A DNA stretch of 64,000 nt from Escherichia coli (GTDB lineage Bacteria; Pseudomonadota; Gammaproteobacteria; Enterobacterales; Enterobacteriaceae): assembly GCF_041886205.1 (NCBI RefSeq), contig NZ_CP169029.1. One strand, given 5' to 3'. The position numbers and the translations under genes are program-made. Of the stretch, positions 5,329-51,654 are shown piece after piece (the first letter of the stretch is position 1; the number at the start of each line of letters is the position of its first letter). A model generated the notes under the pieces. The model saw nothing but the letters and a program-made list of their open reading frames with translations, was not told the origin of the DNA and searched no databases.

Positions 5329-5892
5329 TCAGTTGTGTCGTGGTCGGCCGCGGTTGCTTTTTTCGGGAAGCCTGCTACGGCCCAGAATAATACCGTGTTC
5401 TTTCTGATCCTGTTTAGCCAGATAGCTAAGGGCGTAACGTAAGTTGTCTACCGCGGACTTATCACTATAGTGCATCACGTGATCGATACGCACCGGGTAT
5501 TTGTCTTTAGCCCGGCAAAGGTGAAAGTAACCCTCCCCTTCCGTGATCTGCCTCCAGATATCTCCCAGTTGCCTGGATATCTGATAAGAGTTCTTGTGAC
5601 GTTGCCCATCCAGGTAGCCGACAAAATGAATATGAAGCCCTTTGTTTTGTGTATATTCCATTACCCAGTAATATCCCGCCAACATCGATTGGGTTTCGCT
5701 AAGTAAGCGGTATATTTCCATACACATACTGTGCTTACAGCCATGACCAAAACTGGGCGTGTCTTTCCTGTAGGCAAAATCAATTCTGAAAGGTAACAGT
5801 TTAGAAAAACGTTGAAACAGACCTTCCATGTGTTCATTCACGTCTTTCAGAATCATGAAGTCCATTTCGTAATTGGGATTAGCATTATACAT
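5329..5892 (-). CDS. YagK/YfjJ-family (inovirus Gp2-like) cryptic-prophage protein
   Basis: 187-aa ORF in same orientation as alpA and the split gene, matching CP4-57-type gene order (alpA - yfjI-like - yfjJ-like); family assignment from recalled sequence similarity only. Confidence 0.4.
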   Translation of the reverse strand: MYNANPNYEMDFMILKDVNEHMEGLFQRFSKLLPFRIDFAYRKDTPSFGHGCKHSMCMEIYRLLSETQSMLAGYYWVMEYTQNKGLHIHFVGYLDGQRHKNSYQISRQLGDIWRQITEGEGYFHLCRAKDKYPVRIDHVMHYSDKSAVDNLRYALSYLAKQDQKEHGIILGRSRLPEKSNRGRPRHN

Positions 5893-6858
5893 TTTATAGT
5901 CCTTACTTTATAAAACTGACAGGAAAGTGGAATTACATAAATACTGAGAGTACAGAAACGCCGTACCGCGGCATTAATAAACGAGGTAACCAGCAGCACA
6001 GACAACCTGATAAAACTGTTTCGTATTACCTCATTACAGTAATAGGGTAATGATTCAGAATACAGTAAGACTCTCTTAAACTGAGGACCAGAACGAATTA
6101 CAATAAAAAACACACCTCATATAATTGAGTTTAAGAAAGCACCATTCAATTACTTACAGGAAATAATCTGATCTTCACAAAAGTCAGCATTGAATAGCCA
6201 CAGGCAACATCGCTATTAGTATTGCCGTACCATTAAGTAAAAACAGAGACTCTGCAGAGAGAGCCTACAGATATTTAATCTCACAATAAGAAGATTATTT
6301 CATACAGAAAAGATTATATTTACCCATAAACTGTAACGGAGCTATAACGTACGAACTAAAGACAATATACTCTAATAGTGTTCTGGTACGTAACTAGTAT
6401 TAAATACAAACCAGACATACATTCAGTGGATTAACTTTCTCAATATTACGCTATAAGTGTAGTAACATAATTTACACATAACTAAACTCCATACACCACC
6501 ACACTGTAGTGTATGGAGATATATGTATTACGCACATACAGAATACTTAGCATAAAGAGGAGTGATATTACGATAGAAAGAGATAAGACAACATAACAGA
6601 TAACATAACTCCCATTAATAATACTAATTAACCTAAATTATTTATTGAACACGAAAACAATGAAGGCCCCACCTCACCTCAGACTAAAGCCGACAATATC
6701 CTGAGCAACACTCTATCCAATAGTAAATAGTGGTTACACCAGTTATATTTACTGACTGACCTGTACCAGAGTTTTCTAATACAACGCTGACATGGTAAAG
6801 ACATTAGTCTCCTCCGCAAGTAGCAGAGGAGACTATATGTACTCAACGATTAAGTCGT

Positions 6859-7191
6859 TCAGAGGTCAAAGTTAGGTGCGACACACAACGTTTTTCCCTC
6901 AATAACCGGTACAACTCTGTTTTGTTCATACAGTAAATCCAGTAACCAGTTGATTTTATCCTTTTTCCGGAAACGGTTCGGACCACGCTGTAAAATGTCA
7001 TTTTTTTTCATACAGAGGATCCCCTTCTCAATACAATAGCTTTTTATCCAGTTGAAAAGTTCAAGCTCCTCTGGAATGAGTCGCACAGGTACGGTCAGGG
7101 CAGAGTTGTCAAAAGTTAACGGATTAGACAACCGCACATACTCATTACCGTACCATATTGCTAATTCTCTCGCCATTTCTGCAGTGTAAGG
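6859..7191 (-). pseudogene. C-terminal part of island gene split by IS186 (YfjI/DUF3987-like, putative replication-associated)
   Basis: ORF 6859..7176 is in frame with ORF 8530..9660 once IS186 and one TSD copy are removed. Confidence 0.6.
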
Positions 7192-7202
7192 GGAAATATC
7201 CC

Positions 7203-8541
7203 CATAAGCGCTAACTTAAGGGTTGTGGTATTACGCCTGATATGATTTAACGTGCCGATGAATTACTCTCACGATAACTGGTCAGCAATTCTGGCCCATA
7301 TTGGTAAGCCCGAAGAACTGGATACTTCGGCACGTAATGCCGGGGCTCTAACCCGCCGCCGCGAAATTCGTGATGCTGCAACTCTGCTACGTCTGGGGCT
7401 GGCTTACGGCCCCGGGGGGATGTCATTACGTGAAGTCACTGCATGGGCTCAGCTCCATGACGTTGCAACATTATCTGACGTGGCTCTCCTGAAGCGGCTG
7501 CGGAATGCCGCCGACTGGTTTGGCATACTTGCCGCACAAACACTTGCTGTACGCGCCGCAGTTACGGGTTGTACAAGCGGAAAGAGATTGCGTCTTGTCG
7601 ATGGAACAGCAATCAGTGCGCCCGGGGGCGGCAGCGCTGAATGGCGACTACATATGGGATATGATCCTCATACCTGTCAGTTCACTGATTTTGAGCTAAC
7701 CGACAGCAGAGACGCTGAACGGCTGGACCGATTTGCGCAAACGGCAGACGAGATACGCATTGCTGACCGGGGATTCGGTTCGCGTCCCGAATGTATCCGC
7801 TCACTTGCTTTTGGAGAAGCTGATTATATCGTCCGGGTTCACTGGCGAGGATTGCGCTGGTTAACTGCAGAAGGAATGCGCTTTGACATGATGGGTTTTC
7901 TGCGCGGGCTGGATTGCGGTAAGAACGGTGAAACCACTGTAATGATAGGCAATTCAGGTAATAAAAAAGCCGGAGCTCCCTTTCCGGCACGTCTCATTGC
8001 CGTATCACTTCCTCCCGAAAAAGCATTAATCAGTAAAACCCGACTGCTCAGCGAGAATCGTCGAAAAGGACGAGTAGTTCAGGCGGAAACGCTGGAAGCA
8101 GCGGGCCATGTGCTATTGCTAACATCATTACCGGAAGATGAATATTCAGCAGAGCAAGTGGCTGATTGTTACCGTCTGCGATGGCAAATTGAACTGGCTT
8201 TTAAGCGGCTCAAAAGTTTGCTGCACCTGGATGCTTTGCGTGCAAAGGAACCTGAACTCGCGAAAGCGTGGATATTTGCTAATCTACTCGCCGCATTTTT
8301 AATTGACGACATAATCCAGCCATCGCTGGATTTCCCCCCCAGAAGTGCCGGATCCGAAAAGAAGAACTAACTCGTTGTGGAGAATAACAAAAATGGTCAT
8401 CTGGAGCTTACAGGTGGCCATTCGTGGGACAGTATCCCTGACAGCCTACAAAACGCAATTGAAGAACGCGAGGCATCGTCTTAACGAGGCACCGAGGCGT
8501 CGCATTCTTCAGATGGTTCAACCCTTAAGTTAGCGCTTATG
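7203..8541 (+). mobile_element. IS186 (IS4 family), complete 1339-bp copy
   Basis: 23-bp terminal inverted repeats CATAAGCGCTAACTTAAGGGTTG at 7203-7225 and 8519-8541 (rc); flanked by 11-bp direct duplication GGAAATATCCC at 7192-7202 and 8542-8552 in a GGGG-N6-CCCC target. Confidence 0.85.
7252..8370 (+). CDS. insL: IS186 transposase (DDE, IS4 family)
   Basis: 372-aa ORF with C-terminal YRLRWQIELAFKRLK motif typical of IS4-family transposases; lies between the IS186 inverted repeats. Confidence 0.85.
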   Translation: MPMNYSHDNWSAILAHIGKPEELDTSARNAGALTRRREIRDAATLLRLGLAYGPGGMSLREVTAWAQLHDVATLSDVALLKRLRNAADWFGILAAQTLAVRAAVTGCTSGKRLRLVDGTAISAPGGGSAEWRLHMGYDPHTCQFTDFELTDSRDAERLDRFAQTADEIRIADRGFGSRPECIRSLAFGEADYIVRVHWRGLRWLTAEGMRFDMMGFLRGLDCGKNGETTVMIGNSGNKKAGAPFPARLIAVSLPPEKALISKTRLLSENRRKGRVVQAETLEAAGHVLLLTSLPEDEYSAEQVADCYRLRWQIELAFKRLKSLLHLDALRAKEPELAKAWIFANLLAAFLIDDIIQPSLDFPPRSAGSEKKN

Positions 8542-9660
8542 GGAAATATCCCCCTCTTCACCGCTCGAATGGTAAATAAGTCCTGCCAGTCTTGCCATAT
8601 ACTCTGCATTTTTAGCAGCATATTCCCGGCAATGTCTTAAAGGCCCCAATCCCCCCAGCTTCGATTCCACATCATTGTAATAATCCGTCCAGATTCTGGC
8701 AGCCTGAGGAGAAAAGTGAAGGCAACGTCGTTCACCACTCATCGCCAGACTTTCATCAATAAGCTCATTGATCCTCTCTTCAAACAAATCCTGATACTGT
8801 GATGAATAATTATCTCCGGTTATTATCCTTGTCCCCTGCGTTGATGTTGGTTGACACATCAAAAACCTTGCATGATGTCCTGACGTTTTCACAATTTCTT
8901 TTTTTCGCGTACAAAAACCTTTGTGGTAAACATCAGGCTGAATCATCACCGATATCGTCAGTCTTGGCTCCTTCAAATTAATTCCGGGAGATGATTTCCT
9001 GTCGATGAAAAGAGAACCTCCATCCCACAAAGTGTTAATAATTCCCAGTTTACTCATGGCCCGGCTGTCAAAAATTACCCCCCCTTCACTGGATACAAGA
9101 GCAAAAGAGCGATTGCTGTCGGAATAATATTTTAACATTCCCTCTATCGTTGTCTCATTAAAAATTGTTCGACGTATCTGCGGCGGAACAGGAGGTTTAT
9201 TCAGATGCGTTTCAAGCTCTGATTCTGTTGCCTTGTAATCTTTACCGGCACGAATCTCTTTATGAAATTTTGATTCCAGCGCTTTTTGTTTTTGCTCCCA
9301 TATTTCCTTTTCTGTACTGTAATTCTCAACCAGTTTCGCGTATTCTTCCGCCAGGGCTTCATCCCTGAGATAAAATGCTTTCATAAACACTTTATCCACG
9401 GTCGTTTTCCTTTCACCGGAATCAGCCAGAATCAGAGAGTAAAGATTAACAGGCCCATGTAAATTTCCAGGTCTGCACACGTCAATCTGATTCTGACAGG
9501 CAATTGAGATCGCTGTTAATGCGGATGTTGCCACCATAGCCAAAGGTGCCTGTGTATTTTTTTGAGTTTCAATTATTGCATTTCTCACCAGCGGTGGTAG
9601 TGCATATATCGGATAAGGATTTTCTGGTGCAAGTAAGCACATAAAAGCCTCTCTTTTCAT
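8542..9660 (-). pseudogene. N-terminal part of island gene split by IS186 (YfjI/DUF3987-like); as-is ORF reads into the IS to a stop at 8530
   Basis: 376-aa ORF 8530..9660; last codons (EEGDISHKR) are encoded by TSD and IS186 IR; reconstructed uninterrupted gene would be 483 aa. Confidence 0.6.
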
Positions 9661-9674
9661 TAATGGGTTAGTAA

Positions 9675-9717
9675 AATAGCAGCAAATCCCGCTACAATAG
9701 CGAAAATAGCTGCTATT
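9675..9717 (-). promoter_or_regulatory. Nested palindrome (AATAGCAGC-N24-GCTGCTATT with inner CGCTA-CAA-TAGCG) in leader of the split gene; candidate operator
   Basis: Seen directly, 15-57 nt upstream of start codon at 9660; repeated in the duplicated copy at 10141-10180. Confidence 0.4.
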
Positions 9718-9860
9718 CAGACCTGATGCTCTGAGAAATACAGAGCATTTGTAGATCTGATGTTTAATAAACCGATAAGGTTAATTCAGTGAAGACTGTA
9801 TTATTCACCACGAAATATCATTCATATTTCTCATTCTTAATACCTCCAGAAATTATTTCA

Positions 9861-10190
9861 CTAATACCTTTCCCCCGGTCTTTTCCCTTTCTCCAGAACC
9901 ATAGTGTAAATATTAACGGCCCCACGTAAATTTCCGGGACTGCATACGTCAACCTGATTCTGACAGGCAATTGACATCGCTGTTAATACTGACATTGCAA
10001 CCAGAGTCAGAGGTACTTGTTTATTGTATTGAGCTTTAATTATTGCCTTCCCTATCATTGATGGTCATGCATATACTGAATACGGCATATCCGGTTTGAT
10101 GTAAGACATAAATGCTTCCTTTTTCGTAATACGTTTCGGTTATAGCAGCAATTACCGCTACAATAGCGACAATAGCTGCTCTTTCAACAA
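9861..10190 (-). repeat. Partial tandem duplication of the 5' end and leader of the split island gene (truncated paralogous ORF 9861..10058)
   Basis: 9861-10190 aligns to 9380-9730 at roughly 85% identity by eye; ORF 9861..10058 (MIGKAIIKAQYNKQVPLTLVAMSVLTAMSIACQNQVDVCSPGNL...) parallels the N-terminus of ORF 8530..9660. Confidence 0.6.
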
Positions 10191-10284
10191 TGAATGCTGG
10201 AAATTCTGTTTATCAATTAAACTTCTGGATAAATTGTTCTTATGCTTCTTTTTCCTCCTGAGGTGATCACGTGATGACAAAAAC

Positions 10285-10593
10285 TTATCTGCTCATGGTC
10301 ATATCTGAAGAAAGCGTATGTCGCACTTCGTCATTAACACCTTTGACTGCTGATCTGGCAGGTACAGTATGTAAAGTAAGCCATTCGTCAATAGCTGATG
10401 AACGCCAGCCCACAGAACCACTACCAAGACGTACCGGCCTGGGGAAGGTTGCATCGTAGTATTTCGATAACGGATTCATTTTTTCGTAAATTGTCGAACG
10501 AGATATACCTAACAATTGGCTCAGTTCAGGCATCCGTAAGATGCGTGAAGGAGTCCAGCAGTATCCGGATTGATCTGGCATTTTATCCCCCAT
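10285..10593 (-). CDS. alpA: AlpA-family phage/island HTH regulator (start codon uncertain; alternatives at 10581 or 10665)
   Basis: Contains ILRMPELSQLLGISRSTIYEKMNP...YDATFPRPVRLGSGSVGWRSSAIDEWL, matching the AlpA signature (YDATFP...SVGW...EIDEWL). Confidence 0.6.
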   Translation of the reverse strand: MGDKMPDQSGYCWTPSRILRMPELSQLLGISRSTIYEKMNPLSKYYDATFPRPVRLGSGSVGWRSSAIDEWLTLHTVPARSAVKGVNDEVRHTLSSDMTMSR

Positions 10594-11693: not shown

Positions 11694-13511
11694 ATGTATA
11701 ATTTTATCACTATAATGTATGATGTCTTTTCATGTTTTGGTGTTCTGGCTAAAAACCAGAATACCCGTGACATCCGAAATATTAAAAATTTTTCCTCACA
11801 TCAATATTCACTGGGCGACATGTTTGATGAATTAATAAACATTATTGATAAAGAACAAGTATTGAGTACAGAACAACGAAAAGTTATATTTAGGAGATAT
11901 GAAGATCTCTATGTTAAGCTAATGCACTATTCTGTTTTTACAGACCAAACACATCAAATAATAAAACAAAAATATTTTAATGACATTGTACCAATGATTC
12001 TCGCACTCGACATCAGGAACACATATCGCCCGGATAATGAGATGGCATTTTACTATCATATTCATTCTTTTCTCACTCAGATACCGGATAATGAGGATGA
12101 TATATATCATGCTGCAAGGACATATCTGCGAAATTACGTTAAGTTATGTTTATCCGGATACACACCAGCGAATGCGCATTTCAAAGATATCTTTGATGGC
12201 GTATATGAATTCATTCGTAATATTCGCAAAAACAGTACACCAGGAAAAACAAAACTTATCGCAACTATCAACACATGCAAAGAAACCTGTAAACATCTGC
12301 TTTATTTAAGTAATGAAGACAAGGAAAAAATAATTTCTGACTTAGATAAAGTTCAGGTTGCATGTTATTATCTCACTATATTACTGGCTTTCGAAAGACG
12401 AACTTCATTAACAAGCACCCTGGCAACTTTATATAAAATGCTGATAAGCGAAAGAGAAGTTTCAGAATATGAATGCCAGTTATTATATTTAACCAACCCA
12501 ATAGATGTAATGAATATACTGAACAAATACATATATTACTTTCCTAATGAAAACTCACCATTTTATACACTGAAAATTGACAGTGCATTATCGTGGGATG
12601 CCATTGACGCAATACGAGACTATAGTATTTCTGATATTTATCTTTATCCTGAACAAAAAACAATAAATTGTGTCGTTGAGATTGAAAACATTGTCTTTGG
12701 CGGTTACATTTATACATTGAACAACGGCGTCACATTACAAAACATAGAAAACACTTTAAAAGATTCTTCATGCCATTATGTCTTAAATGGCTATACAGAA
12801 TTTGTTAACTGTTTGATACAACTTACTTCAGGAAAGACTGAAAGTGTTCATCGCACCATCAATAAACTGAACTATGAGAAATTACCTTTTGGATTTATCA
12901 TTGCCGCGTTTGCTATACTAAAGATAGCATTTAAAATAAAATTCAGTAAAAATCATGTAAATATCCGAGCATTATTAAATGACATCAATTATTTTATGAC
13001 TTATCAGGGCGAGTCCATTAACCTTATTTCACTGGATCACGAATACCCAGAGTCCTGTCTTCAAAATGACACAAACACATATTTATTAGGAAGAGTAATA
13101 TTTCTGTATAACTCAATGATTTATAAGTTCATAAACTGTCAGGAACATGAAACCAATAACATTCACTCAGCTATGATAAATAACCTATTACAGGAAGTTG
13201 ATATAGCCCTTGGTAAAATAAATAACATTATAGACAGCAGAAACATATCAGCCCCCCATGAACTGGCAAATATTCTTACCCGCGAAAAAATACTTACAAC
13301 ACGGGAAAAAAAAGGAAACCTGATAAGCCTGTTTGATGGATTCACTTTATTCCATTGTGTTGGAATGATAACCTTTCTTATCCATTATCTCAGAACACCT
13401 GAAGAAAAAGTTGAAAATATATTTATGTTATATGGTGCAGATAAAAACAATAAACTACGCAGAAGACTGATTTATGACGCACTAGGAATAATTCAGTCTC
13501 AGCAGGAGTGA
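11694..13511 (+). CDS. Hypothetical 605-aa protein, AT-rich cargo gene in the int-alpA hotspot; no recognisable catalytic motif
   Basis: Long uninterrupted ORF in very AT-rich DNA; SD aaaggaga 5 nt upstream of ATG; TATAAT at 11651-11656; convergent with integrase. Confidence 0.7.
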   Translation: MYNFITIMYDVFSCFGVLAKNQNTRDIRNIKNFSSHQYSLGDMFDELINIIDKEQVLSTEQRKVIFRRYEDLYVKLMHYSVFTDQTHQIIKQKYFNDIVPMILALDIRNTYRPDNEMAFYYHIHSFLTQIPDNEDDIYHAARTYLRNYVKLCLSGYTPANAHFKDIFDGVYEFIRNIRKNSTPGKTKLIATINTCKETCKHLLYLSNEDKEKIISDLDKVQVACYYLTILLAFERRTSLTSTLATLYKMLISEREVSEYECQLLYLTNPIDVMNILNKYIYYFPNENSPFYTLKIDSALSWDAIDAIRDYSISDIYLYPEQKTINCVVEIENIVFGGYIYTLNNGVTLQNIENTLKDSSCHYVLNGYTEFVNCLIQLTSGKTESVHRTINKLNYEKLPFGFIIAAFAILKIAFKIKFSKNHVNIRALLNDINYFMTYQGESINLISLDHEYPESCLQNDTNTYLLGRVIFLYNSMIYKFINCQEHETNNIHSAMINNLLQEVDIALGKINNIIDSRNISAPHELANILTREKILTTREKKGNLISLFDGFTLFHCVGMITFLIHYLRTPEEKVENIFMLYGADKNNKLRRRLIYDALGIIQSQQE

Positions 13512-13698
13512 AACGTTAAAACAGGCAAATTGTTTTTTATAAATAGGAGATTGTTGAGTAATCCCCTGTTTATAAAAATACGCTTTCCTGACGATCTGAT
13601 AATTATCAGCTCAATACATTTGACATAAAAGCGGTTCCTTAATTACTACTGCCACGATCACATATCAAATCATGATCGTACAATATACATTTTCACTA

Positions 13699-16805: not shown

Positions 16806-17729
16806 TTAACTGTATGCATGCAGCGTACGTTGGCAAAGTGCCGAACGTACGCAATCCTCTTTACCGAACCGGACGATCCCAACCATTTCATCTTCTTCGA
16901 AACGTTCCAGCGCGTCACTTAATCCGGAGCACACGCCGCGAGGCAAATCGCATTGCGTGATATCACCGTTGACGATAACTGTCACGTTCTCCCCGAGGCG
17001 GGTTAAAAACATTTTCATTTGCGCGGCAGTCACATTCTGCGCCTCGTCAAGAATGACGACTGCATTTTCAAAGGTACGTCCACGCATATAGGCGAAAGGC
17101 GCAATTTCCACCTTCCCTATTTCCGGTCGCAGGCAGTACTGCATAAAGGAAGCCCCTAAGCGCCGGACCAGCACGTCGTAAACCGGGCGAAAATAGGGAG
17201 CAAACTTTTCTGCGATATCTCCAGGTAAGAAGCCAAGATCTTCATCGGCTTGCAGAACTGGACGGGTGACGATAATCCTGTCGACATCCTTATGTATCAG
17301 GGCCTCTGCCGCTTTTGCTGCGCTGATCCAGGTTTTTCCGCACCCGGCTTCGCCCGTGGCGAATATCAGCTGCTTACTCTCAATAGCCTTCAGATAGTGC
17401 AATTGCGCTTCATTACGCGCGAGGATGGGCGAAGTATCGCGACTGTCGCGGGCCATACCAATGGCTTCTACGCCGCTCATTTGCACAAGCGAGGTGACCG
17501 ATTCTTCTTCACGCTGCTTATGGCTGCGCGAATCCCGTCTCAGCACACGTTTTGCCTCGCGACGAGCTTTGATCACTGCTTTTTGTCTTCCCATGGAGAG
17601 CACCTTGAGTTGTTTGTATTCATCACACGCGCCGTTGGCAGCGCGATTATGCGCACGAACATCAGAGGGTTGGCTTCCTTGTAAGCCATAGTTTGCTTTT
17701 GGATAAAATGCCGAAAAACGGCTACGCAC
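16806..17729 (-). CDS. phoH: PhoH ATPase core ORF; N-terminal extension appears frameshifted, so the full gene would span 16806..17869
   Basis: ORF with Walker A GEAGCGKT; separate upstream ORF 17573..17869 (MVTSYTGHVLDNQ...) with SD ggag overlaps it in another frame. Confidence 0.8.
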   Translation of the reverse strand: MRSRFSAFYPKANYGLQGSQPSDVRAHNRAANGACDEYKQLKVLSMGRQKAVIKARREAKRVLRRDSRSHKQREEESVTSLVQMSGVEAIGMARDSRDTSPILARNEAQLHYLKAIESKQLIFATGEAGCGKTWISAAKAAEALIHKDVDRIIVTRPVLQADEDLGFLPGDIAEKFAPYFRPVYDVLVRRLGASFMQYCLRPEIGKVEIAPFAYMRGRTFENAVVILDEAQNVTAAQMKMFLTRLGENVTVIVNGDITQCDLPRGVCSGLSDALERFEEDEMVGIVRFGKEDCVRSALCQRTLHAYS

Positions 17730-18070: not shown

Positions 18071-18400
18071 GCATCAGGCATCAGTGCACGATCGCCGGAT
18101 GCGGCGTAAACGCCTTATCCAGCCTACCAAACCCGCACCGATTATAGGCATGATAAGACGCGCAAGCGTCGCATCAGGCATCAGTGCACGATCGCCGGAT
18201 GCGGCGTAAACGCCTTATCCAGCCTACCAAACCCGCACCGATTGTAGGCATGATAAGACGCGCAAGCGTCGCATCAGGCATCAGCGCACGAACGCCGGAT
18301 GCGGCATCAACGCCTTATCCCGCCTACCGAACCCGCACCGATTGTAGGCATGATAAGACGCGCAAGCGTCGCATCAGGCATCAGCGCACGAATGCCTTAT
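18071..18400. repeat. BIME/REP array (three units of about 110 bp containing GCCGGATGCGGCGTAAACGCCTTATCC)
   Basis: Three near-identical copies of canonical REP palindromes between phoH promoter and efeB. Confidence 0.85.
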
Positions 18401-50983: not shown

Positions 50984-51156
50984 GGTCAGTGCGTATTTGC
51001 AGCGCGACGTTATCAAAGGTGATCATCGTCGATTTACAAAAAATACACTTAGCGCCCAAAGGGTTTCGCTCCGTCACATCGAATGCCGATGTGCGGTACT
51101 GTGAACCATGACAACATGGACAGCGGAAATGGAGATGTTGAGTAATAATGGCAACC

Positions 51157-51369
51157 TTAGAGCGTAACAACGTTCGCTGCCGCGGGGCCACGTTGCCCCT
51201 GCTCAATAGAAAATTCAACTTTCTGATTTTCGTTCAGCGTGCGGAATTCATTGCTCTGGATGGCGGTGAAATGGACGAAAACGTCTTTGCTGCCATCATC
51301 AGGAGTGATAAAGCCAAAACCTTTATCTGCGTTAAACCATTTTACTAAACCAGTCATTTTATTAGACAT
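51157..51369 (-). CDS. cspG: Cold shock protein CspG
   Basis: 70-aa CSD protein ([21 protein letters not shown]). Confidence 0.9.
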
Positions 51370-51654
51370 ATTTTACTTCCTTCATTTTGGGCCTTTCGGC
51401 AAACAGGGCTTTAATACAGAAACTACTTAGTGTTCAGGAGAGAGACTCAAAAGAAGGGGATAATGCCTGATAATGAGAACTGCTTTAGTAAACTACTTTG
51501 TATGCTGTCTGTCTTTCAAACCGACGCAGCTATTAACGCATGATAATTGAGATTAAGCAAATTTTATTTTAGCCGTCCGGCGGTCTTAAATATCGCTGGC
51601 TTTATTTTATTAACCCCGTATAGTGCAGCGCAGTATTTTCAGTAAGGAATTTGT

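Follow-up and report, generated by a model that had tools for sequence, protein, structure and literature searches.

A conserved inverted-repeat DNA site upstream of yfjI in CP4-57-type islands of Escherichia coli and its possible role in island replication

Integrative islands of the CP4-57 type in Escherichia coli carry yfjI, a gene of the DUF3987 family predicted to encode a helicase. We analyzed a stretch of 64,000 nucleotides (nt) from E. coli that contains such an island (contig NZ_CP169029.1, assembly GCF_041886205.1; the whole stretch is called the window here). Two copies of a nested palindrome made of short GCTAYT boxes occur in it, one just upstream of yfjI (palindrome 1) and one at the head of a dead yfjI fragment (palindrome 2). 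The palindrome is conserved upstream of yfjI homologs and, judged from the sequences compared, it is a DNA signal that stands before this predicted helicase gene in most E. coli. The explanation that we tentatively prefer, with confidence that stays somewhat short of even, is that the palindrome is the origin or loading site of a replication pair formed by YfjI and the product of the neighboring gene, YfjJ. In this explanation we infer both the protein that binds the site and the start of replication there.

All genes of interest are on the minus strand of the window. Read on that strand, palindrome 1 is AATAGCAGC TATTTT CGCTA TTG TAGCG GGATTT GCTGCTATT, which contains two direct and two inverted GCTATT boxes. 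The first of these boxes is 68 nt upstream of the yfjI ATG at 9642, the start called by the Prokaryotic Genome Annotation Pipeline (PGAP) in identical genomes; the alternative start is at 9660. A first-pass annotation of this DNA had described a nested palindrome in both copies of a duplicated region. Palindrome 1 is exactly as described there. Palindrome 2 has the same inner stem, but its outer arms pair at only six of nine positions. The folding z-scores of palindromes 1 and 2 were -3.9 and -2.9, respectively. We scanned the 64-kb window for palindromes in which 16 or more of 20 ungapped positions are complementary and the loop has 3-5 nt. Just two sites reached this threshold, palindrome 1 and a site at 13534-13578, compared to a mean of 0.17 in block-shuffled sequence. 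The site at 13534-13578 is an unrelated palindrome with 17 of 20 pairs and a 5-nt loop. It lies just behind an open reading frame (ORF) for a hypothetical protein of 605 amino acids (11694-13511), of which it may be the terminator.

The earlier proposal of a regulator site had been staked on conservation of the palindrome in homologous islands, and the palindrome is conserved there. Homologous loci were gathered from viral contigs and metagenome contigs by similarity to the YfjI protein only, so that there was no selection for the motif. The palindrome was present in 53 of 54 distinct regions upstream of yfjI homologs. The proteins encoded at these loci were 52-100% identical to K-12 YfjI, and the viral ones were 39-43% identical to the protein of this island. 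The consensus, TGCTATTT-yyGCyAyT-(3-4 nt loop)-TAGCrGAATAGC, is a 2+2 inverted set of GCTAYT boxes in which the left outer box, GCTATT, is invariant among homologs. The first box lies 63-90 nt before the yfjI start codon, mostly at 73-76 nt, and the remaining intergenic DNA around the palindrome is unalignable among homologs. Island types that carry the palindrome are common in E. coli, with three types found in 1400, 363, and 1876 genomes.

DUF3987 clades at a greater distance (loci L004-L083 and L093-L098, with 30-36% identity) did not have the motif. Islands in which yfjJ precedes yfjI (L093, L096, L097, L098, and L026) are without the GCTATT palindrome and have instead another conserved motif, ACTAATTYAGTCYGATGCAAKCTAATT, located about 80-110 nt upstream of yfjI, with CTAATT directly repeated 22 nt apart. 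GCTAC repeats in distant primase-DUF3987 fusions (L022, L046, L061, and L071) were considered as the same DNA motif and rejected because codon usage varies by locus. These four loci encode in-frame (V)AT-rich repeats, such as VATVTVATIAT and ATATFATPAT, just before the WPEPxPL motif at which the DUF3987 domain starts, and the GCTAC periodicity of these repeats has a superficial likeness to the left arm of the palindrome. The differences in codon usage among them suggest a low-complexity linker that is maintained at the protein level.

The second copy of the palindrome belongs to a repeat. As the first-pass annotation had stated, the 5' end and leader of yfjI are duplicated. A repeat search aligned 9426-9658 with 9893-10125 (233 nt, 76% identity) and 9644-9717 with 10110-10183 (74 nt, 74%), giving a period of 466-467 nt, and a gapped alignment showed homology from the palindrome to approximately codon 90 of the yfjI-family gene. 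The measured identity of 74-76% is lower than the 85% that had been estimated by eye. The second copy does head a truncated ORF (Table 1), the frame-shifted part of which, at 10058-9861, is labeled in identical genomes by PGAP as a "DUF3987 domain-containing protein". The description as a tandem duplication is correct in that there are two copies, but not as a fresh event in place. The copies are only about 75% identical, and the two-copy layout, scored where at least 80% of the query was covered, is found in 1024 of 5426 complete E. coli genomes. It occurs in at least three diverged island variants (that of the window, the F11 type, and the ECCNB20-2 type) that are mutually 79-85% identical over the fragment. 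The near-identical copies in one lineage that characterize a recent in-situ tandem duplication were not found here. Strain UTAK-2 has a single-copy form (alpA, 95 nt, yfjI) and the CP4-57 island of K-12 has one copy only. These results largely show that the repeat arose long ago in the alpA-yfjI region of an integrative island of the CP4-57 type, either by partial duplication or as a scar of recombination. Copy 2 is dead, and as a duplication the repeat is unremarkable: a pseudogene remnant that has become fixed.

What makes the duplication useful is that it is a natural experiment in which the palindrome was retained while the coding sequence behind it decayed. Palindrome 2 differs among the three island variants at 11 of 129 positions compared (88-95% identity), and the adjoining pseudo-coding DNA at 164 of 747 (73-82%); these comparisons are not independent, but their direction is clear. 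Palindrome 2 is thus better kept than the dead ORF, suggesting that the site is constrained by itself and not via translation of the gene behind it. The left edge of palindrome 2 is exactly where homology between the window and the F11-type island starts, and upstream of that edge the alpA modules are different. This coincidence indicates that the palindrome marks a module boundary.

The strong conservation of primary sequence, the symmetry, and the absence of strand bias suggest that the palindrome is a DNA recognition site rather than an RNA structure. We consider it unlikely that it acts as an RNA hairpin in the alpA-yfjI intercistronic leader, where it could serve the yfjI mRNA as an operator of translation, as an attenuator, or as an element for processing or stability. 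The gene-sense strand does fold slightly better (-24.6 and -20.3 kcal/mol for the two palindromes versus -21.2 and -16.1 kcal/mol on the other strand). One pair appears as C-G, U.G, and U-A, both arms show a matched 1-bp deletion at the homologous locus L136, and the hairpin keeps its position upstream of the ribosome-binding site. However, among 22 distinct K-12-clade sequences paired cells amounted to 80.8% versus 80.5% in shuffles, both sides had changed in only two of 16 pairs, and the covariation score (0.112 versus 0.098 in shuffles) was not above controls, being reached by 39 of 500 shuffles. Mismatches compatible with G-U pairing had no strand bias, with 80.8% paired in the sense and 82.3% in the antisense direction. 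An early impression of swaps from U.G to G.U between the copies failed both the 22-sequence test and the strand-symmetry count. The primary sequence is also much more conserved than pure structure requires, the site is kept before a dead ORF, and Rfam yielded nothing at the gathering score or at a relaxed E-value, only generic miRNA-hairpin matches with E of 0.15-0.67. In copy 1 of the window the hairpin is followed by TATTTTAC and a terminator-like site was flagged at 9695-9679, but copy 2 and the K-12-type clades have no such U-tract. An intrinsic terminator bypassed by AlpA was rejected since there is no conserved U-tract and no motif of the type of the Pseudomonas AlpA binding element (ABE). 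A small leader ORF (AAIFAIVAGFAAILLTH followed by a stop codon in one frame) was also rejected because of a stop just upstream, the lack of a start codon, and a 1-nt deletion in copy 1 of F11. Even less probable, in our opinion, is that the palindrome has no current function. It would then be either a by-product of 9-nt tandem units (GCTATTGTx) that are prone to slippage or a scar of recombination that travels with yfjI. Tandem GCTAnnnTA units yield GCTA...TAGC palindromes automatically. Palindrome 2 contains a 9-nt unit, CGCTATTGT, in two copies in the window, three in E. coli 700462 (L085), and four in E. coli PRO_A-1504-6M-A_ESBL (L084); this variable copy number points to slippage. In L084 and L085 the units lie about 125-165 nt downstream of the alpA-family stop. 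Palindrome 1 of the window differs from that of F11 at 5 of 44 positions versus 4 of 240 in the neighboring coding DNA, and this extra drift could come from redundancy once two copies exist. By contrast, a functionless sequence would not be expected to persist amid scrambled intergenic DNA in nearly all of the independent upstream regions, with an invariant left box, or to be better conserved in palindrome 2 than neutral pseudogene DNA. We regard both the RNA hairpin and the functionless slippage product as less likely than either an origin or an operator.

A transcriptional operator or promoter element is the nearest rival to a replication site, and a close one; we regard it as possible though doubtful. 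The palindrome would overlap the yfjI promoter, and a dimeric or tetrameric regulator bound to it would set the expression of yfjI and yfjJ. Candidates for this regulator are a protein of the AlpA family, a different island repressor, a factor of the host, and YfjI itself. The two-fold symmetry of the site and its spacing from the start codon in all clades agree with such a role, as does the presence of an AlpA-family gene in every island type. At its center the palindrome has a -10-like sequence (TATTGT or TATTAAT). A match to TTGAAA-16-TATTGT overlaps palindrome 2, and the retention of palindrome 2 despite the dead ORF fits a promoter reading through to the intact yfjI. In Pseudomonas, AlpA acts from a site inside the promoter spacer (PMC7969949). 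Against an operator, a promoter scan gave five matches at 9 of 12 consensus positions versus 4.0 expected from shuffles, and the -35 element is not conserved. Thus, of the promoter-leader region that had been annotated, the duplicated leader is confirmed and the promoter is represented by weak consensus matches only. The idea that a dimeric regulator binds here fared similarly. The two-fold symmetry and conservation of the site fit a protein-binding DNA site better than an RNA, but AlpA, which had been named as a possible binder, is an unlikely one on the sequence comparisons. The same boxes occur unchanged beside four AlpA-family subtypes (the K-12 type of 70 amino acids, that of the window with 98, the F11 type with 75, and a convergent type with 92) that differ in their helix-turn-helix sequences, including the putative recognition helices, and identical box variants are found next to K-12-type and F11-type AlpA. 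No cluster of GCTATT boxes is present upstream of K-12 intA, which we take to be the classical AlpA-activated gene, and the ABE (GGGACGN5GGTA) is absent at the locus. In satellites known as phage-inducible chromosomal minimalist islands (PICMI), expression of AlpA left satellite gene expression unchanged (PMC10803314).

The replication explanation draws on the proteins encoded beside the palindrome. An AlphaFold2 model of YfjI, with a predicted local distance difference test (pLDDT) score of 87.8, had its best fold matches among MCM2-7, archaeal MCM, and ComM ring helicases, and it includes a C-terminal winged-helix domain at residues 407-473. YfjI thus models as an MCM-like AAA+ helicase. This combination of helicase and winged helix agrees with a published study in which DUF3987 was predicted to be a helicase of mobile elements, with a winged helix for origin recognition behind it (PMC5862659), and a DUF3987 gene called "prim" is required for satellite replication (PMC10803314). 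YfjJ has residues that are invariant across 19 homologs, namely R.D, H.H (LHIHF here), and Y..K...K (with SYLAK at Y..K). K-12 YfjJ scores above the Pfam threshold for REP_ORF2-G2P. The best matches of the YfjJ model were the origin-binding/nuclease domain of adeno-associated virus (AAV) Rep and the Rep nucleases of circular Rep-encoding single-stranded (CRESS) DNA viruses, with weak E-values from 6e-3. From its motifs and model, YfjJ is probably an HUH endonuclease. All island types examined had a yfjJ gene, and its place in the gene order took three different forms; the presence of YfjI at every site is linked by construction because the loci were retrieved with YfjI. Together, YfjI and YfjJ look like a split replication module consisting of an HUH Rep and a helicase. 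A literature search found no published function for yfjI or yfjJ and no description of the palindrome, and both genes are still counted among the "y-ome" genes of E. coli K-12.

From the conservation and symmetry of the site, its independence of the AlpA subtype, its persistence in the dead copy, and the folds and motifs of these two proteins, we propose that the four GCTAYT boxes, two direct and two inverted, are a conserved DNA-level recognition site of the yfjI module. On the excised circle, the boxes would be bound by YfjJ, acting as an origin-binding nuclease of the HUH Rep type, by the winged helix at the end of YfjI, or by both. The DNA would then be melted or nicked at the palindrome, and the AAA+ helicase YfjI would load there, possibly head-to-head on two half-sites. 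The same binding could also autoregulate yfjI, since the site is directly before this gene. Several features known from origins are found here: a cluster of boxes beside a helicase or initiator gene, a replicative-type helicase predicted to be encoded by the adjacent gene, and, as for rolling-circle origins, an HUH nuclease predicted to be encoded by the element on the basis of the YfjJ motifs, Pfam match, and weak fold match. With regard to a flanking AT-rich unwinding element, the DNA beside the palindrome is 36-40% GC, with upstream T-tracts in some clades only, and a more AT-rich gap of 967 nt is located elsewhere in the island. We are more reserved about the specific and general form of this proposal, in which the palindrome is the origin of a widespread two-protein replicon, with YfjJ recognizing the boxes or hairpin and YfjI being loaded, on CP4-57-type islands and phage-satellite-like elements of most E. 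coli; this is conceivable but rather unlikely.

A number of observations weigh against a replication site. The fold matches of YfjI are weak, with E of approximately 1e-4 to 1e-2 (best 2e-4), and the YfjJ model has a pLDDT of only 70 and weak matches as well. The near-constant distance to the yfjI start would fit a promoter or operator equally well, and so would the -10-like center and the overlap of palindrome 2 with the TTGAAA-16-TATTGT match. Conservation of the arms is unequal, with an invariant left and a variable right arm, which would not be predicted for a purely symmetric loading site. The boxes are constant across YfjI proteins of 39-100% identity, although binding sites usually co-vary with their initiator. 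No second cluster of GCTAYT boxes, like that in P4 crr, was found in the window, in K-12, or at locus L194. Finally, the origin could instead lie between yfjI and yfjJ, in a non-coding, AT-rich (31-38% GC) gap of 967 nt (5893-6858); an unannotated RNA in this gap is another possibility. It contains a tandem 12-mer, AGACAACATAAC, in two copies (6586-6609) and hairpins with 13-bp stems at 6487-6518 and 6805-6835.

Two further comparisons were made and set aside. The loop and right arm of the palindrome, TTAATAG(C/T)GGA, correspond to the nick region of f1/M13 gene II (verified in f1, J02448, 5779-5789), and in locus L120 the loop and right arm, TTAATAGTGGA, match this region exactly. M13 gpII belongs to the Pfam family Phage_CRI and not to the family of YfjJ, so we rejected the likeness to the gpII nick site and treat the match as a coincidence. 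A 10-kb Psychrobacter plasmid that was considered as a DUF3987-only replicon was uninformative because it also encodes RepM.

Table 1. Positions in the window of the two palindromes, the repeat that carries them, and the neighboring genes and elements
Feature	Position	Strand	Remarks
Palindrome 1 (gene-proximal)	9675..9717		Arms AATAGCAGC / CGCTA-CAA-TAGCG / GCTGCTATT
Palindrome 2	10142..10184		About 100 nt downstream of the alpA-family stop; heads the dead yfjI fragment
Repeat copy 1	9426..9717	-	Holds palindrome 1, the leader, the ribosome-binding site, and the initial ~75 codons of functional-type yfjI
Repeat copy 2	9893..10183	-	Holds palindrome 2, the leader, and the decayed 5' end of yfjI; identity to copy 1 is 74-76%
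AlpA-family gene	10285..10581	-	98 amino acids; Pfam Phage_AlpA, E = 5e-19; directly upstream of palindrome 2
yfjI' pseudogene remnant	9861..10109	-	ATG at 10109-10107, TGA after 14 codons, then a frame-shifted ORF of 65 amino acids
Unique spacer	9718..9860	-	143 nt, between the remnant and palindrome 1
yfjI, 5' part	8541..9642	-	DUF3987, predicted MCM-like AAA+ helicase; cut by the insertion sequence
IS4-family insertion sequence	7204..8540	+	1337 bp, 13-bp target duplication; splits yfjI
yfjI, 3' part	6859..7203	-	Includes the predicted C-terminal winged-helix domain
yfjJ-like gene ("inovirus-type Gp2")	5329..5892	-	RxD, HxH, and YxxK motifs; candidate partner protein for the palindrome

In the direction of transcription, the order of features is the AlpA-family gene, palindrome 2, the dead yfjI 5' fragment, the spacer, palindrome 1, yfjI, and the yfjJ-like gene. 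The insertion sequence that splits yfjI in the window is one that we take to be IS186-like; strains C11 and C10 have an uninterrupted yfjI. Genomes that are identical in sequence but without this insertion encode an integrase, the 605-amino acid protein, an IS1 remnant, alpA, the 65-amino acid "DUF3987" fragment, YfjI (477 amino acids), and the "inovirus-type Gp2". In the spacer, only the last ~30 nt are similar to F11-type island sequence located upstream of palindrome 2. The spacer was also considered as a remnant of the 3' end of alpA, and this was rejected because the alignment score was no better than those of shuffled controls. Right behind the alpA-family stop, at 10264-10283, is a near-perfect palindrome, TGATCACGTGATGA (core ATCACGTGAT), that is particular to this alpA module. 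Elsewhere in the window, matches at the Rfam gathering score were to Ysr251 (188 bits), two copies of naRNA4, and the cspA thermoregulator (16811-17004, 18147-18324, and 51103-51525).

Islands with an int-alpA-DUF3987 core carry anti-phage systems and behave as phage satellites, and how they replicate after excision is poorly understood. An invariant and sharply delimited cis site of approximately 40 bp beside the helicase gene could be used to probe binding and nicking, is a candidate for a minimal origin, and can mark where modules meet in mosaic islands. If our proposal is true, the system would be a bacterial counterpart of the parvovirus and CRESS arrangement of a Rep protein plus a palindromic origin, with nuclease and helicase split into two genes.

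In parvoviruses such as AAV, with Rep and the inverted terminal repeat, and in CRESS and other rolling-circle systems, an HUH nuclease/origin-binding domain and a ring helicase act on a palindromic, hairpin-capable origin of short boxes. The matches of the YfjJ model to AAV Rep and CRESS Rep and the HxH and YxxK motifs are points of likeness to these systems. In contrast, the nuclease and helicase are separate proteins here, the helicase is predicted to be MCM-like rather than a member of superfamily 3, and the loop of the palindrome is only 3-4 nt and not invariant. Among satellite and island replicons, the Rep protein of Staphylococcus aureus pathogenicity islands (a DUF927 helicase) has an adjacent iteron ori, the P4 alpha protein acts with ori and crr, and phage-inducible chromosomal islands and PICMI have int-alpA-prim cores. 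The island in the window likewise has a repeated-box cis site right beside an initiator-type helicase gene. Unlike the known sites, which are direct iteron arrays flanking an AT-rich tract, the site here is 5' of the gene and its boxes are inverted in a 2+2 arrangement, and YfjI is without a primase domain. The core of an integrase, AlpA, and a DUF3987 protein is shared with the published satellites (PMC5862659, PMC10803314).

The Pseudomonas AlpA system (PMC7969949, PMC9371919) resembles this locus in its AlpA-family regulator and in the order of alpA, a short intergenic region, and a target gene. There, the ABE is in the promoter spacer and an intrinsic terminator lies downstream (PMC7969949, PMC9371919), whereas both the ABE motif and a conserved U-tract terminator are absent here. 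The autoregulatory inverted-repeat operators of plasmid rep genes are also palindromes of the same motif immediately upstream of a replication gene, but the separate iteron array of those plasmids was not found here. The layout of four short boxes in two inverted pairs is like that of site II of the simian virus 40 large T antigen and of the papillomavirus E1 site, and would allow head-to-head loading of two hexameric helicases; the boxes and proteins have no homology to those here, making this an analogy of layout only. Set among these systems, the palindrome is a new and clearly bounded case of an element of a familiar kind, the inverted-repeat cis site next to the replication gene of a mobile element.

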